Below are positions 1,957 through 15,235 of a stretch of 20,000 bases of DNA, in pieces. Location of the stretch: IMG/VR virus record IMGVR_UViG_3300018475_001895, one strand, 5' to 3'. The notes under the pieces were generated by a model, which had not been told where the DNA came from, did no database searches, and worked only from the letters and a program-made list of their open reading frames with translations. A program made the position numbers and the translations under genes. The first letter of the stretch is position 1. Each line of letters begins with the position of its first letter. The DNA is from an uncultured virus (IMG/VR IMGVR_UViG_3300018475_001895) (taxonomy: Duplodnaviria; Heunggongvirae; Uroviricota; Caudoviricetes).

Positions 1957-1973
1957 GAATTGAGGTGAATGTT

Positions 1974-3077
1974 ATGATCGCGATTGCTCTTGTAGATCAA
2001 AAGTGGGGCATCGCAGCCAATGGCAAGCAAATCATATTTATTCCGGAAGATCTGAAACGGTTCAAGAAGCTTACTGAGGGTCATCCAGTTATTATGGGTC
2101 GTAAAACATATGAAGCCCTTCCCGGAAAGAGACCACTTCCAGGAAGACGTAATCTGATTCTATCCAGGAATATGGAGACTGCACCAGAAGGATTTGAGCT
2201 TGGTAGCCTCATGGCTAATGATCCCGATACATGTGTAATAGGTGGTGAGTCGGTCTATGCGCAGCTACTTCCTTTATGTGATCATATCTACCTCACTGTA
2301 GTAGAATATGATTTCGAGGCTGATCAATTTTTCCCCAATATTACTCATGATGGAAGTGATTGGGAGTTAAGATCCCGTGGACCTGATCTTGAGTATAATG
2401 GATATGTATACCATTTCGATGAATATGTTCGCAAAGGTTCTTTTGATCTTGTTGAACCTACGAAATCGGTAGAAGAAGATCTGCAGCAGTTTAATAAAGC
2501 TGAAATTCTTGCTGTTGCAGAAACACTTATCCAGCAAGCTCAAAAGGAGCATACGAATGAAGAGGCCCAAGCCTCAGCCATCTTAGCAAATCTGGCAGTA
2601 TTGTGTTATTCTCAGGGTATGAATGCAACCTGTAACAAAGGTGTGAAAGCTTTTGCATCTACCGATGATATTTTTGCTGACGTTATTGCAGAGGCGCAAA
2701 TTCGTTGGGAGTGGATCATCACATACTGTCACGATGTGTTAAACATTGATCTTCATCCATTGGCAATGCTATTTGTATTGCGATTTATCACATCTAGCGA
2801 GAACGATGTGTATGCTCCACATGTTCTTGCGGGTATTGAGCGTGTCAGCAAACAGTTGGATGAAAAGATCGCTGAAGATGTACAAGCAGCGGATGCTGAA
2901 ATCGATCCTGAGATTGAAAGTTTTGATGGGAGTATGGCAACTTTGGTTGTAGAATATTTCAAATTGCTTGAGGAAATCGGAACATTCCATCGGGATCGCG
3001 ATAAGTACGAGACAGAAGAACAGAAGAAACTACATGATCGAATTGTTACGATTTATCGTAAGATCGGTCGTACATAA
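1974..3077 (+). CDS. folA: Dihydrofolate reductase fused to a ~210-aa acidic C-terminal domain of unknown function
   Basis: PEDLKRFK, VIMGRKTYEAL, RPLPGRRNLILSR, VIGGESVY, ADQFFP; ATG 1974 preferred because the GTG at 1965 is part of the GAGGTG RBS. Confidence 0.9.
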   Translation: MIAIALVDQKWGIAANGKQIIFIPEDLKRFKKLTEGHPVIMGRKTYEALPGKRPLPGRRNLILSRNMETAPEGFELGSLMANDPDTCVIGGESVYAQLLPLCDHIYLTVVEYDFEADQFFPNITHDGSDWELRSRGPDLEYNGYVYHFDEYVRKGSFDLVEPTKSVEEDLQQFNKAEILAVAETLIQQAQKEHTNEEAQASAILANLAVLCYSQGMNATCNKGVKAFASTDDIFADVIAEAQIRWEWIITYCHDVLNIDLHPLAMLFVLRFITSSENDVYAPHVLAGIERVSKQLDEKIAEDVQAADAEIDPEIESFDGSMATLVVEYFKLLEEIGTFHRDRDKYETEEQKKLHDRIVTIYRKIGRT

Positions 3078-3078
3078 C

Positions 3079-3098
3079 CTCTCGAAATACATATTATA
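3079..3098 (+). promoter_or_regulatory. Putative phage early-type promoter, copy 1 (CTCTCGAAATACATATTATA)
   Basis: 18/20 identical to 14323-14342; core resembles the phiKZ early promoter TATATTAC; directly after the DHFR stop. Confidence 0.55.
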
Positions 3099-3146
3099 TC
3101 AGTGGATGTAGAGCCTTCATACATAAGGTTTTGCATCCACTGATAT
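3096..3146 (+). promoter_or_regulatory. 22-bp RNA hairpin with CAUACAU loop in the leader of the HTH gene
   Basis: ATATCAGTGGATG/CATCCACTGATAT perfect 13 bp, then TAGAGCCTT/AAGGTTTTG fully paired using three G-U wobbles; 7-nt loop; no U tract. Confidence 0.75.
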
Positions 3147-3179
3147 TGTAATTCAAAATATAGAGAGGAGTATGAAACT

Positions 3180-3470
3180 ATGACAAGAAGACAGAGACGA
3201 GATCTTGTAATTGATCAGAAGAGAGCCGCACTTGCATATGCAGCTCGTGATGTTTCTCAGCAAGAATTAGCCGAAGAGTTCGGTGTTACTCAGAGCACTA
3301 TTTCCAGATACATTAAACTGGGCGAATTAGCGATCCTCGCAGAGTGTAATATCAAAGAAGCCGATAGTCCGAGCACAGTGCGAGCTAAAGCTAGTAGAGC
3401 TGGTTATCATGACACCAGTGATATTCAGCGTATACATGGTCATTGTGTTCGACGATATCAGAAAGTGTAA
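3180..3470 (+). CDS. Helix-turn-helix DNA-binding protein
   Basis: SQQELAEEFGVTQSTISRYIK HTH signature; GAGGAG RBS. Confidence 0.85.
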   Translation: MTRRQRRDLVIDQKRAALAYAARDVSQQELAEEFGVTQSTISRYIKLGELAILAECNIKEADSPSTVRAKASRAGYHDTSDIQRIHGHCVRRYQKV

Positions 3471-3518
3471 TTTAAATAAGCATACATAAAATACGAAAGA
3501 AAAGGAGAGTGAAATTGT

Positions 3519-4859
3519 ATGCAGGCAATCCGTGCTGGGGACCTTTATTTCTTGCAGTCCCCGTTTCATACGCAACCGTCAGATACAGGAGCTGCTGTAG
3601 AAAAGAGGCTTAGTTATCTGCTCGGTACAGTTTCATCGAGACCGGTGGTAGTAATCCGGCCTCCCGCATGGTGGGATCGTTTCAACACCTGTACTGTCAT
3701 ACCCGCACTGTCCCACGGTGAACCGGCTATTGTTTATAAGCTGATCGACCGCTACGGAGGGATGACGAAAGCTGACTATCCCTTTGTGCCTCATAATCCA
3801 CATACCATTCCTGTTTCACGACTGGGCAAGTTTATGGGGTCAATGACAGATGAAGAATTAGAACCTCTTCTCTATGCATATAAGTGGATCCATGATCCCT
3901 TTATGCAGATGGATACACAGAACTATCCTGTACCAGAGGTATATCGAGATGTGATGGCGAAAAAGATTCCGCCTCACAGTTGGAGAGTGAATAAAGATGC
4001 CAGAGCTGGTGTAGATATCCGTATCACGAAAGATATGGAACTACAAAGTGAAACTAATCCTGAGCTGAACCGTTTCAATATTGGCTCTGCGATGAAAACC
4101 AAGATCTCTCCCACTGCTGAGAGAGCATTGAACTGTGACAAGATTTATGTTCCAACGGAGAACCCTCTTCCTGATTCCGTTGAAATGGGGATTAATGAAA
4201 TATCTTGTCCGGTAGAAAAATCATTCCCGCCATCAATATTTGATACGGAGACGCTGAACAGGGTTGCCAGCAGGTTTACTATCAGCGATGCGTATTATAA
4301 TAACGATAAATCTATTCGAACACCAGATATCCTTACAGCGTCTGAAATTTCAAATATCCGTTGTGAGCTGACCGATTCTGAATTCAATGAGATCATTCAG
4401 TTCTACAAGAAGATGACACCGTTGGATGCATATATACTTGGTCCGCGTCTTCCTCTTGAAGTTCTGGCTGATATTACTGAGATGCCCACATCTAAGGCTG
4501 TCGCTCTGAAAAGGCTCTGTAATTATATGCGCGATCTTCCTTGCGAAGATTATGATAATAGAGTCAAAGAGCTTGAAGATAGGTTAGAGTCTGAAAAGGA
4601 AGAACAATCTGAAGTCGAAGAAGAGATTAAACAGCAAGGCGCAAATAAGTCTCCATCCATGTATGTGAATGAGCTTCAGAAAGTTAAACCATATCTGAAT
4701 CAGAAATCTATCATGAGCATGCCAGATGATGTCGCCAGGCTATTCCTCGAAATGCCGATGTATCTCATTAAGAGAAATTATAATGGGACTCAGTTTAATA
4801 AACCATATGCGAAAGCTATGGAATACTATAAAGAGAAACTAAGTAAAACACCAGCTTGA
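3519..4859 (+). CDS. MazF/PemK-like endoribonuclease domain (aa ~1-127) with a ~320-aa C-terminal extension
   Basis: IRAGDLYF...SRPVVVI...CTVIPALS...HTIPVSRLGKFMGSMTDEEL follows the PemK/MazF pattern (RGDIY, RPxxVI, VxPITS, RTIDKxRL..IG.L); AAGGAG RBS. Confidence 0.7.
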   Translation: MQAIRAGDLYFLQSPFHTQPSDTGAAVEKRLSYLLGTVSSRPVVVIRPPAWWDRFNTCTVIPALSHGEPAIVYKLIDRYGGMTKADYPFVPHNPHTIPVSRLGKFMGSMTDEELEPLLYAYKWIHDPFMQMDTQNYPVPEVYRDVMAKKIPPHSWRVNKDARAGVDIRITKDMELQSETNPELNRFNIGSAMKTKISPTAERALNCDKIYVPTENPLPDSVEMGINEISCPVEKSFPPSIFDTETLNRVASRFTISDAYYNNDKSIRTPDILTASEISNIRCELTDSEFNEIIQFYKKMTPLDAYILGPRLPLEVLADITEMPTSKAVALKRLCNYMRDLPCEDYDNRVKELEDRLESEKEEQSEVEEEIKQQGANKSPSMYVNELQKVKPYLNQKSIMSMPDDVARLFLEMPMYLIKRNYNGTQFNKPYAKAMEYYKEKLSKTPA

Positions 4860-4872
4860 TTGGAGAAGAGTA

Positions 4873-4903
4873 AAACGGGGGCCTAGCGTCCCCGTTTCTT
4901 TTC
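4873..4903 (+). terminator. Rho-independent terminator
   Basis: AAACGGGGGC-CTAGC-GTCCCCGTTT stem-loop followed by CTTTTC, right after the MazF-like gene. Confidence 0.75.
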
Positions 4904-6134: not shown

Positions 6135-6395
6135 ATGACCCAACAAGAACTTGATAAATTAAATACTCTTACTAAGAAGTATGGGTATGAATTTAGATCT
6201 CTTAGAGAGATCAAGAAATATACACGCAAAGTGCGGAGAGATATTCGTGAGAAATGTAAAGCTATGGGAATTCGTGTCGATGATAATACCATAAGAATTT
6301 ATCGGACATGGAAACCAAAGAAGAGATTTGATAATCTCTTAATCCGTCCTGGATTGAAGAAGCGTTATATTCAATTAAAATACAAAGGAGATTGA
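6135..6395 (+). CDS. Small basic hypothetical protein
   Basis: 86 aa, K/R-rich, tightly packed between sbcD and infA. Confidence 0.7.
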   Translation: MTQQELDKLNTLTKKYGYEFRSLREIKKYTRKVRRDIREKCKAMGIRVDDNTIRIYRTWKPKKRFDNLLIRPGLKKRYIQLKYKGD

Positions 6396-6400
6396 TACGC

Positions 6401-6628
6401 ATGGCTAATAGTGAAATGATGGAACTGGAAGGTACTGTGGTTGAAGCATTCCCCAGTCTGATGTTCAAAGTTGCTGTAGATGTTGGAGGAAAGACTCATC
6501 ATGTGATGTGTACGCTTTCCGGTAAGTTGAAGATGAACTATATCCGGGTGCTGGTAGGAGATAAAGTTATGATTCAGATGTCTCCATATGATCTGACAAA
6601 GGGTCGTATCACCTGGAGATACAAGTAA
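6401..6628 (+). CDS. infA: Translation initiation factor IF-1
   Basis: ELEGTVVEAFP...FKV...SGKLKMNYIRVLVGDKV..MSPYDLTKGRITWRYK; AAGGAG RBS before ATG 6401. Confidence 0.96.
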   Translation: MANSEMMELEGTVVEAFPSLMFKVAVDVGGKTHHVMCTLSGKLKMNYIRVLVGDKVMIQMSPYDLTKGRITWRYK

Positions 6629-13498: not shown

Positions 13499-14143
13499 AT
13501 GAGCAAGAAAAAGAAGAACAAGAAGAATTCTTGGAAGTATTTCGATGGGGGATACGACAAGAAGAAGTCTGGCAAGAAGGGCAAGAAGAATAAGCGTTCC
13601 GTTTATGATAAGCCCAAGATGAAGACCGTTAAGCCGACTCTGTCCAAGAAGGACGCAAAGGCTAATAAGAAGGTCGTTCTGTCTCCTGTGGAAGTCCCCA
13701 AGGAGTTCAGAAAGAATCGCCTGAAGTGCAACCATGCTGTGCGCATGATTACCCCTGAGGCATACCGCAACATGACTCCTACCTATGCGGCTTACACTCC
13801 GGCGCTGGAGCGTGTGGTCGAGAAGTATGGTGAGGATCATGTCCATGTCTGCAAGGACTGCTATGATGTTCTGGTTGATCGCAATCTGATCACTTCCGAT
13901 GAAGTCTATGATGCCATGACCACTCTGTATGTGGCTTGCAATGTTGCTGTTGCCAATAAGCGTCTGAAGGAAGATGAGGTTAAGGCTATTGCAAAGCTGA
14001 AAGATGTCGTCGAAGACTTCCGTCCTGTTCTGGACATCCTGGAGAAGATCGAAGAGGAAGGAACTGAGTCTGCTCAGCCTACCAATACCGCGAGCCTGAA
14101 TGCCAATAGCGGCGCTGTATTTGTAGATCCCAGTGATGACTGA
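13499..14143 (+). CDS. Lys-rich N-terminal, CxH...CxxC-containing putative nucleic-acid-binding protein
   Basis: AAGGAGG RBS before ATG 13499; MSKKKKNKKN...; CNH...HVCKDC; acidic tail; AAG/CTG codon bias. Confidence 0.8.
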   Translation: MSKKKKNKKNSWKYFDGGYDKKKSGKKGKKNKRSVYDKPKMKTVKPTLSKKDAKANKKVVLSPVEVPKEFRKNRLKCNHAVRMITPEAYRNMTPTYAAYTPALERVVEKYGEDHVHVCKDCYDVLVDRNLITSDEVYDAMTTLYVACNVAVANKRLKEDEVKAIAKLKDVVEDFRPVLDILEKIEEEGTESAQPTNTASLNANSGAVFVDPSDD

Positions 14144-14166
14144 TAATAGTCACTCAGTGCTACAAT

Positions 14167-14212
14167 AAAGAGGGACGAGCGGGTATAATCCCGCTCGTTT
14201 CTTTTTCTTTTA
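14167..14212 (+). terminator. Rho-independent terminator
   Basis: ACGAGCGGG-TATAAT-CCCGCTCGT stem followed by a long U tract. Confidence 0.9.
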
Positions 14213-14275
14213 TTTTTGTATATGTTAAGTAGCGAGTAGGTATTCGCATATTACTTATAATTTGATTGTGTTACA

Positions 14276-14287
14276 AACACAGTTATA
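14276..14287 (+). promoter_or_regulatory. Putative AACA-N6-TA promoter
   Basis: AACA-CAGTTA-TA downstream of the terminator, upstream of the HNH-gyrB operon. Confidence 0.45.
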
Positions 14288-14312
14288 CAAATGAGCCGAA
14301 GAATCCGGTTTA

Positions 14313-14342
14313 TTGACTGTATCTCTCGGAATATATATTATA
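14313..14342 (+). promoter_or_regulatory. Early-type promoter copy 2 overlapping a sigma-A-like promoter
   Basis: CTCTCGGAATATATATTATA (14323-14342, 18/20 to copy 1); also TTGACT-17bp-TATTAT (14313-14341). Confidence 0.6.
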
Positions 14343-14386
14343 GTATAGAGAAAAGAAAAGAAATTTCGAGAGGATGTGAATTATAG

Positions 14387-15235
14387 ATGAGCAAAAGAGT
14401 TATTAGAAAGTTTGATCCTAAAAAGATAAAGGGTGAAAGATGGGGCAAACTAGAAGTTGTTCGATTTGATCATGATGAGATCAAGCATGGAAAATACGGC
14501 AAATATAAAGTGCATTATGTATTGTTCCATTGCGAGTGTGGAAAAGAAAAGATACTCGATTATTATTCAGTCGCATCAAATACCAGAGGTGCGGTGAGAA
14601 GTTGTGGGTGTGCGTATTATGATAAAATGAAAGATGTGCGTAAATATCCAGATAGTATGCGAAATTCACCACTCTATAATGTATACCATAATATGGTACA
14701 TCGGTGTTATGATATTAAAGACAAAGATTATCATAAATATGGTGCGCGTGGTATTTATGTGTGTGATGACTGGATAAAACCTGACAAAGTTCAAGGTTAT
14801 ATGAACTTTTATAATTGGGCGATTAATAGTGGATATGCCGGATATGAACCCGGTACGCCACGTAAAAATAGACCTACGTTAGATCGTATTGACAATAATG
14901 GTCCGTATGCTCCGTGGAATTGTAGATGGACTACCTATATAGAGCAAGCTAATAATAGACGGAGTGCAAGATATATAACAGATCTTGATGGTGAAGTTCT
15001 TACTTGGGCAGAATTCGATAGGAAGCATAATCTTCCATATAGAACCACAAAACAGCGAAAGCATCTGTATAAAGGTCAATGTTGGTCCGATGATGCTGTA
15101 CTATATGCATCATATTACCAAGATAGAGGAATTCGCAAGAAGGTACGTACTGGTGAATTTATTGATAAAGATGGATTCAAAGTATTAATACCTACAAAAG
15201 AAACTTTAAGGAGGATTTTAAAGTATGGCTCGTGA
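14387..15235 (+). CDS. Free-standing HNH-family homing endonuclease
   Basis: GERWGKLEVV, CECG, SCGC, YHNMVHRCY, YGARGIYVCDDW, LDRIDNNGPYAPWNCRW...QANN; AAA-rich codons; overlaps gyrB by 11 nt. Confidence 0.88.
   Translation: MSKRVIRKFDPKKIKGERWGKLEVVRFDHDEIKHGKYGKYKVHYVLFHCECGKEKILDYYSVASNTRGAVRSCGCAYYDKMKDVRKYPDSMRNSPLYNVYHNMVHRCYDIKDKDYHKYGARGIYVCDDWIKPDKVQGYMNFYNWAINSGYAGYEPGTPRKNRPTLDRIDNNGPYAPWNCRWTTYIEQANNRRSARYITDLDGEVLTWAEFDRKHNLPYRTTKQRKHLYKGQCWSDDAVLYASYYQDRGIRKKVRTGEFIDKDGFKVLIPTKETLRRILKYGS

Follow-up and report, generated by a model that had tools for sequence, protein, structure and literature searches.

A TACAT cluster ahead of a predicted early MazF-fold gene in a PBS1/AR9-like jumbo phage is probably a lineage accident and not a control switch

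Does a run of TACAT pentamers ahead of a MazF-fold gene amount to a control switch? The question is raised by a locus (3031-4859, + strand) in a 20,000-nucleotide stretch of DNA, hereafter the window, from an uncultured virus of the Caudoviricetes (IMG/VR record IMGVR_UViG_3300018475_001895), where seven TACAT sites precede the gene for a 446-aa MazF-like protein. The sequence-only reading had taken this arrangement for a MazF-sensing or feedback circuit, in which host or phage MazF activity would destroy the leader and the helix-turn-helix (HTH) part of the mRNA and spare the MazF-like cistron. The cluster is probably not a control switch, because it is missing from related phages. The explanation that we prefer, with a probability of roughly 0.55, is that in a PBS1/AR9-like jumbo phage, positions 3085-4903 are transcribed early as one unit encoding an RNase that would act in host takeover, and that the cluster is accidental.

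The seven sites (3031, 3071, 3088, 3120, 3309, 3433 and 3483) and the absence of the pentamer from the + strand of the MazF-like coding sequence (CDS; 3519-4859, 1341 nt) were all reproduced. The window lies inside a 75.5-kb virus contig, and its whole sequence recurs unchanged in G001, a near-identical record of 230,855 bp; background densities are 1.56 TACAT per kb in the contig (118 sites) and 1.32 per kb in G001 (304 sites). For a count of seven in the 500 nt preceding the MazF-like start codon, the Poisson P is 6e-6 to 2e-5, and seven or more were reached in 4 of 200,000 local shuffles. This is the largest TACAT cluster of G001 with both strands considered; its genome-wide P is 0.03 under random placement on both strands and 0.07 when judged by 400 block shuffles that preserve composition. 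Of the 1024 pentamers, 49 have an equally or more extreme cluster somewhere. The genome-wide density test proposed with the circuit thus bears out a local excess (P about 1e-5) but leaves only modest significance for the genome as a whole (P 0.03-0.07). The empty CDS was dropped as a signal because zero sites there are ordinary: the chance of none is 0.12, synonymous recoding yields none 43% of the time, and 11 of 32 open reading frames (ORFs) of 1.1-1.6 kb in G001 have none either. Smaller + strand clusters, of five or six TACAT in 460 nt, lie at about -3923, -19982 and -34025 (G000, window coordinates), the one near -3923 being antisense to a long minus-strand ORF.

Conservation was examined at the DNA level in six independent relatives with 29-48% identity, and further scans added no loci to this set. 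L002 belongs to the same species, and L008 and L011 repeat L004 and L006; none of these three was treated as an independent locus. L010, with 32 nt of upstream sequence, served for the CDS count alone. The cluster is kept in none of the six, and so fails the conservation check by which the sequence-only reading had proposed to refute itself. A single TACAT stands in the 500 nt before the start in each of L003, L007 and L009, and there is none in L004, L005 or L006, whereas four of seven relatives carry the pentamer inside the MazF-like CDS (L004 and L005 one each, L007 and L010 two each). A MazF-sensing switch would keep its sites in the leader and exclude them from the spared cistron, and neither pattern was found. 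Strains of the same phage point the same way. Contigs assembled from runs X8 and X9 (two studies, one contig each, depth about 5, approximately 99% identical) have 30 and 23 listed differences from the window in 2.4 kb, and share two changes that matter here: 3121 A>G, which removes TACAT 3120 from a hairpin loop, and 4487 C>T, which is synonymous and introduces a new UACAU within the MazF-like CDS. Runs X14 and X17, which reach only 8 and 17 of the region's 30 bins, were left out of these counts. Judged from these sequences, the pattern fits an extreme that arose by chance and is now regressing; recent selection acting on the strain of the window is less likely, and we consider it probable that the UACAU cluster has no conserved role and is an accident of this lineage.

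Of the seven sites, one belongs to the promoter and four are coding, including the two that close the upstream gene; the one in the loop differs from strain to strain. Positions 3093-3178 and 3409-3498 are weakly similar, with 3120 pairing with 3433 (P 0.025, the best of three comparisons), so that some sites may not be independent; this weakly suggests that a hairpin leader was once duplicated around an HTH insertion, and one or two TACAT sites may derive from that event.

The promoter assignment is the firmest part of the early-unit reading. The sequence AAATACATATTAT at 3085-3097 is followed by a 6-nt spacer and a G at 3104, and matches in 12 of 13 bases the early consensus mapped in phage AR9, reported as AAATATATATTAT-(6N)-G (PMC5312081). 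The core TA(C/T)ATA(C/T)TATA occurs 30 times in G001, nearly always in intergenic DNA and oriented towards the ORF that follows; the promoter motif itself has 29 copies in G001, as against 0-2 in each of five shuffles. The base seven positions after the final TAT is a purine in 29 of the 30 motif matches, and a G in 20. The AT-rich consensus, 6-nt spacer, purine start and repetition upstream of genes are all those of AR9/phiKZ-type early promoters, and an annotated AR9 early promoter stands in the syntenic place before SbcD and DnaB. On this comparison, 3085-3097 is very probably an AR9-type early promoter starting at G3104, a start placed by the AR9 spacing rule. The sequence-only reading had described a unit bounded by a promoter and a terminator. 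The terminator stood (4873-4897), being listed by the terminator scan as an intrinsic terminator-like hairpin with a T tail across 4873-4903 on the + strand; as for the promoter, the sigma-70 scan found none on the + strand upstream of the HTH gene, and the phage early motif takes that role. Many early promoters of G001 have a second element, TTTCCGATTT(G), some 15 bases upstream of the AT-rich core (for example at 32756, 134172, 156437, 164719, 172664, 176630, 199564 and 219346), which is absent at the window's promoter.

This promoter changes how the cluster is to be read. Site 3088 is promoter sequence because it lies inside the AR9-type motif, and 5 of the 29 G001 promoters begin with TACAT. 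The sites at 3031, 3071 and 3088 (three of the seven) would be absent from the early transcript because they lie upstream of G3104. The circuit is weakened further by the ORFs of the phage, which do not avoid UACAU: in G001 there are 218 UACAU observed against 176 expected, and 19 of 210 ORFs hold at least 4 per kb. Across five records, z runs from -2.3 to +6.2, in a test whose ORF calls are crude and whose z is inflated by codon heterogeneity, and no convincing genome-wide avoidance of UACAU was found in their ORFs; this argues against a phage protein that cuts UACAU freely.

The assignment of the phage follows from the same records. Among 152 ORFs scanned in G001 are an RNA polymerase beta subunit (PF00562, E 6e-17) and a weak beta-prime match (PF00623, E 9e-4), and the record also encodes tubulin, phiKZ internal head proteins (phiKZ_IP), a divergent DnaB (divDNAB) and a CHAP-domain protein. 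The best matches of the beta subunit are in the Bacillus phages PBS1 and AR9 (31%), and AR9 has the same gene order of early promoter, small gene, SbcD-like gene, DnaB-like gene and baseplate wedge. With a genome above 200 kb, a multisubunit RNA polymerase, the divergent DnaB, tubulin and the internal head proteins, the virus is by its gene content a PBS1/AR9-like jumbo phage. Its host is probably a gut member of the Clostridia. The initiation factor IF-1 that the window encodes at 6392-6628 (+ strand; above the NCBIfam cut-off) is 60-67% identical to Clostridia-type IF-1, with Oscillospiraceae and Clostridia as named neighbours, which are a hint and no more; together with the CHAP-domain protein they make the Firmicute host assumed by the sequence-only reading probable.

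Downstream of the promoter, the MazF-like gene is shared by the family and the HTH gene is not. The 96-aa HTH protein (3180-3470; Shine-Dalgarno at 3162-3170) matches Pfam HTH_3 (E 3e-6), as had been read from the letters, along with HTH_11 and HTH_28, and its gene contains TACAT 3309 and 3433; TACAT 3483 lies in a spacer at 3471-3518, together with the MazF-like gene's own Shine-Dalgarno. Relatives of the HTH protein fall in its own cluster only (one cluster among 9 candidates): a full match exists in one of five related records and none in the other four (three records being less than 60% complete), and none of the six related loci has a match. As far as these sequences go, the HTH gene would be confined to this phage species. 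Four of the six loci have no gene between the promoter and the MazF-like gene, whose start codon then lies 51-68 nt after +1, and the slot holds two other, unrelated ORFs in L004 and L007; it is occupied by the HTH gene in the window and by a 134-aa or a 237-aa ORF elsewhere. The slot thus takes different genes from phage to phage, the HTH gene being most likely a passenger. A conserved adjoining antitoxin gene, as in type II MazEF systems, was not found: PF04014 (MazE) matched in none of five records, three of them less than 60% complete, in a search that did not extend to other antitoxin folds.

The PemK/MazF fold supposed for the downstream protein is borne out for residues 1-130 only (3519-3908), which model as a MazF/CcdB SH3-like barrel with a C-terminal helix. 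The model of the whole protein has a pLDDT of 82 and a pTM of 0.44, and the MazF match covers this N-terminal domain, with a Foldseek E of 6e-5 to 4mzm and VIA Z scores of 10.6 to 6kys and 10.1 to 4mzm (root-mean-square deviation 3.1-3.2 over 108 residues). The Pfam PF02452 score of the window protein is 14.8 bits, below the curated cut-off of 23.1 bits; at E<=0.1 the profile matches 40 of 41 family members (best 3e-6), some of them above the cut-off. In a profile of eight N-terminal domains aligned to 4mdx, R41, P42 and S65 fall on R25, P26 and T48 of B. subtilis MazF, residues described as required for binding and toxicity, Arg25 and Thr48 for the latter (PMC8634880). Among 41 sequences down to 27% identity, R41 is kept in 40, P42 in 41, and Ser or Thr at position 65 in 39. 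UACAU-specific MazF of Firmicutes contacts its site through Pro26, the counterpart of P42, and through a Gly18/Glu20 loop to which the window protein does not align. The synonymous to non-synonymous changes in the strains (22:1 in X8, 11:3 in X9) indicate that the MazF-like protein is under purifying selection. On such conservation, we consider it somewhat more probable than otherwise that the N-terminal domain is an active endoribonuclease; that it is directed at the host is a more tentative proposal, for which the odds fall slightly short of even.

The remaining approximately 310 residues have no family assignment. A linker and a conserved helical module (about residues 230-446; the two at 3909-4859) make up this part, and the module found no usable Atlas match (best TM 0.34). 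Relatives with the C-terminal module alone (209-225 aa: P0139, P0142, P0143, P0144) may be split genes or fragments, and longer PemK-fusion relatives reach 500-590 aa (P0150-P0161). The family is sizeable, with 52 relatives at 90% clustering and 79 representatives at 50% identity, several of them on contigs of 220-247 kb. No cultured phage homologue was found at E<=0.01 in 50,697 GenBank phage records, where the N-terminal domain gave one chance match (E 4), and pattern scans of limited sensitivity found no relative on GTDB genome contigs. PHROGs has no family for the window protein and weak MazF-like matches for 3 of 10 relatives, and PADLOC and NCBIfam gave nothing relevant.

It is unlikely, though among the better-surviving alternatives, that the MazF-fold protein cuts nothing and is a decoy or RNA-binding scaffold that blunts host MazEF, for example by forming mixed dimers. 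The UACAU-reading loop of MazF (Gly18/Glu20) has no alignment in the window protein, where the model places a helix (residues 22-35) before R41; no antitoxin was found in the PF04014 search, neither UACAU nor other motifs are tellingly avoided, and phages are described as encoding the MazF inhibitors AimX and YosL (PMC10769878). However, AimX is reported as a homologue of MazE and does not have a MazF fold (bioRxiv 2023.04.27.537455), and the retention of the catalytic Arg (40 of 41) and Ser/Thr (39 of 41) in sequences of as little as 27% identity speaks against a protein that does not cut.

The early mRNA would open with a hairpin. A 22-bp inverted repeat with three G.U pairs (3096-3146) gives, in the early RNA, a 14-bp terminal hairpin from +1 (3104-3138) with the loop CAUACAU, which contains TACAT 3120. 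Promoter and hairpin at +1 recur in all seven loci with enough upstream DNA (z -2.2 to -7.5); the hairpin sequences are unrelated, the loops all different, and UACAU is in the loop only in the window. It is well established that 5' stem-loops stabilise bacterial mRNA. Hairpins of -19 kcal/mol or lower occur in 19 of 99 early leaders; the 60 nt that follow contain one in 6 of 99. For 20 of the 23 strong leaders, the antisense strand folds less stably than the sense strand. Rfam returned only a generic hairpin match for the leader, at 23 bits against a gathering cut-off of 70.

In the reading that we prefer, an injected virion RNA polymerase, by analogy with AR9, would recognise 3085-3097 and start at G3104; the +1 hairpin would most likely be a 5' stabiliser; and the mRNA would encode the species-specific HTH passenger and the family-wide 446-aa protein. 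The MazF-fold domain would most likely be an active RNase acting in early host takeover on a target other than UACAU, and the helical C-terminal module would probably aim or restrain it in place of an antitoxin. Several results weigh against this account. TACAT is the most enriched pentamer of the 500 nt preceding the MazF-fold gene (P 6e-6), and the predicted early transcript keeps four sites (P 0.002-0.004), the maximum among 100 early promoters of five records. The other six sites are intact in X8; the relatives compared are distant, at 29-48% identity, and the 73%-identical P0002 is not among them. No convincing strand-specific avoided 4- or 5-mer names another RNase target. Lastly, in three of the seven loci the hairpin continues for 8, 6 and 8 pairs upstream of +1, an extension for which a pure 5' stabiliser would have no use, and the first 8 annotated early leaders of AR9 have no +1 hairpin.

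Because of that upstream pairing, the hairpin might itself be a control element, either a terminator or attenuator of thyA-DHFR transcription that insulates a toxic gene, or an autoregulatory site whose binding or cleavage by the MazF-fold protein would keep that protein's production in check. We regard this as doubtful, about on a par with the decoy. The hairpin is kept in all seven loci, was listed by the terminator scan, and ranks 4th of 29, 2nd of 7, 4th of 32, 5th of 11 and 3rd of 21 among early leaders. It is not specific to the MazF-like gene, however, since 19 of 99 early leaders have one equally strong; its T tail in the window is weak, and the loops share no common features. At early promoters of G001-G005 (for example 123302, 176630 and 88867 in G001), several inverted repeats run 6-8 bases back into the promoter.

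A lineage-specific form of the proposed switch, built on cleavage of the UACAU-rich leader and HTH part by a host or phage MazF, stays among the readings because X8 keeps six of the seven sites, but it is improbable. The local excess (P about 1e-5) speaks for it, as do the reports that the B. subtilis phages phi3T and SPbeta are UACAU-enriched and respond to MazF (bioRxiv 2023.04.27.537455) and that the mRNA of E. coli MazF is itself a target of the enzyme (PMC8749433). Its best mechanistic remnant, as modelled, is a pairing in RNA that reads through from upstream: CCUCUC (3078-3083), present only in such RNA, would pair with the HTH Shine-Dalgarno (fold of 3078-3185, z -8.1), leaving the latter a predicted accessibility of 0.26-0.30. 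A cut at 3088 would remove CCUCUC and open the Shine-Dalgarno, whose predicted accessibility rises from 0.30 to 0.74 when the RNA begins at 3089 and is 0.62 in RNA starting at 3104. The loop site is 0.99 unpaired, yet a cut there lowers the predicted access from 0.62 to 0.42, and 3433 and 3483 are mostly paired (0.36 and 0.21 unpaired). Against the switch stand the absence of the cluster from all six relatives, the modest genome-wide significance, the loss of the loop site and gain of a CDS site in X8 and X9, and the explanation of 3088 as promoter sequence. More improbable still is the specific version in which this species recently wired a MazF sensor onto the family-wide RNase gene. Next to the early burst from G3104 there would be thyA-DHFR read-through RNA with its Shine-Dalgarno paired to CCUCUC, and host MazF cutting at 3088 would free it, turning on the HTH protein and the antitoxin-less MazF-fold enzyme when the host toxin defence fires.

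The least likely alternative is that the HTH protein represses its own gene by binding the repeated TACAT as a DNA operator. Two inverted pairs do lie across the promoter and start (ATGTA-N9-TACAT at 3106-3124, a spacing unique in G001, and TACAT-N13-ATGTA at 3088-3110), but 3121 A>G disrupts a pair in two strains, pairs of this kind at other spacings turn up by chance throughout G001, and the flanks of the seven sites have little in common.

How does the locus compare with known systems? The window protein shares with MazF/PemK (PF02452; EndoA 4mdx, S. aureus 4mzm, M. tuberculosis MazF-mt1 6kys) the fold of residues 1-130 and the R41/P42/S65 set, and differs in its 15-20% identity, its length (446 aa against about 115), the helix before the catalytic Arg and the lack of a MazE match. 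Like a type II MazEF operon, the unit has one promoter, accompanied by an inverted repeat, for a small DNA-binding gene and the MazF-fold gene immediately after it; unlike one, its HTH is not PF04014 and is unmatched in four related records, and the HTH slot is empty in four of six loci. From this comparison, the protein appears to behave like an orphan MazF and not as part of a MazEF module. The likeness to the early promoters reported for AR9/PBS1 covers sequence, spacing, the G at +1, intergenic and co-directional placement, and synteny; AR9 differs in having the 67-aa gp001 at the syntenic place, no MazF-like gene and no hairpins in its first 8 early leaders, and many G001 promoters carry an extra upstream TTTCCGATTTG. 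The arbitrium-MazEF interplay described for phi3T and SPbeta (PMC10769878; bioRxiv 2023.04.27.537455) likewise involves a UACAU-cutting host toxin and UACAU-dense phage genes. Those phages are, by these accounts, temperate, encode MazF inhibitors and are enriched genome-wide, whereas the window's phage has a MazF fold and a local, non-conserved cluster. Phage PemK-like proteins in BFVD (A0A8S5VG67, A0A8S5UF15 and the Lactobacillus phage ViSo-2018a toxin), of 108-266 aa and some of them extended, match the N-terminal domain only, and none has the C-terminal module. Phage PemK-like proteins and phage-MazEF interplay are thus already known, and the long jumbo-phage form is undescribed in the literature that we found. 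The main text of a jumbo-phage survey (PMC7824862) contains neither "MazF" nor "PemK", although its supplements may list such domains; the available part of PMC9414953 mentions mazF of the host only, and the RNase and host-takeover passages of PMC13282480 hold nothing on such a protein.

Upstream of the unit lies a gene for DHFR fused to a tail of about 210 aa (1965-3077, + strand; DHFR_1, E 4e-36), the last 50 nt of which contain TACAT 3031 and 3071; by eye, the tail is a separate ORF in L003, L004, L009 and L011. Elsewhere, G001 encodes polyphosphate kinase, FolD, a reverse transcriptase and a chaperonin-like protein (L012:6572-8422, L015:11940-12818, L023:7400-8902, L021:3949-5823). Mobile-endonuclease-like ORFs stand near gyrase and nrdD, at 14387-15235 in the window (by eye only) and at L016:10647-11300 and 14012-14734 (HNH and LAGLIDADG matches).

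The proposed UACAU circuit is probably not real, and the family of early MazF-fold proteins to which it drew attention remains useful. Uncultured AR9-like jumbo phages of the gut carry a protein family with a MazF fold, intact catalytic residues, a large additional module and no recognisable antitoxin. If these proteins are active RNases, they would be a candidate route by which such phages reshape host RNA, and possibly a source of MazF enzymes with a new specificity.

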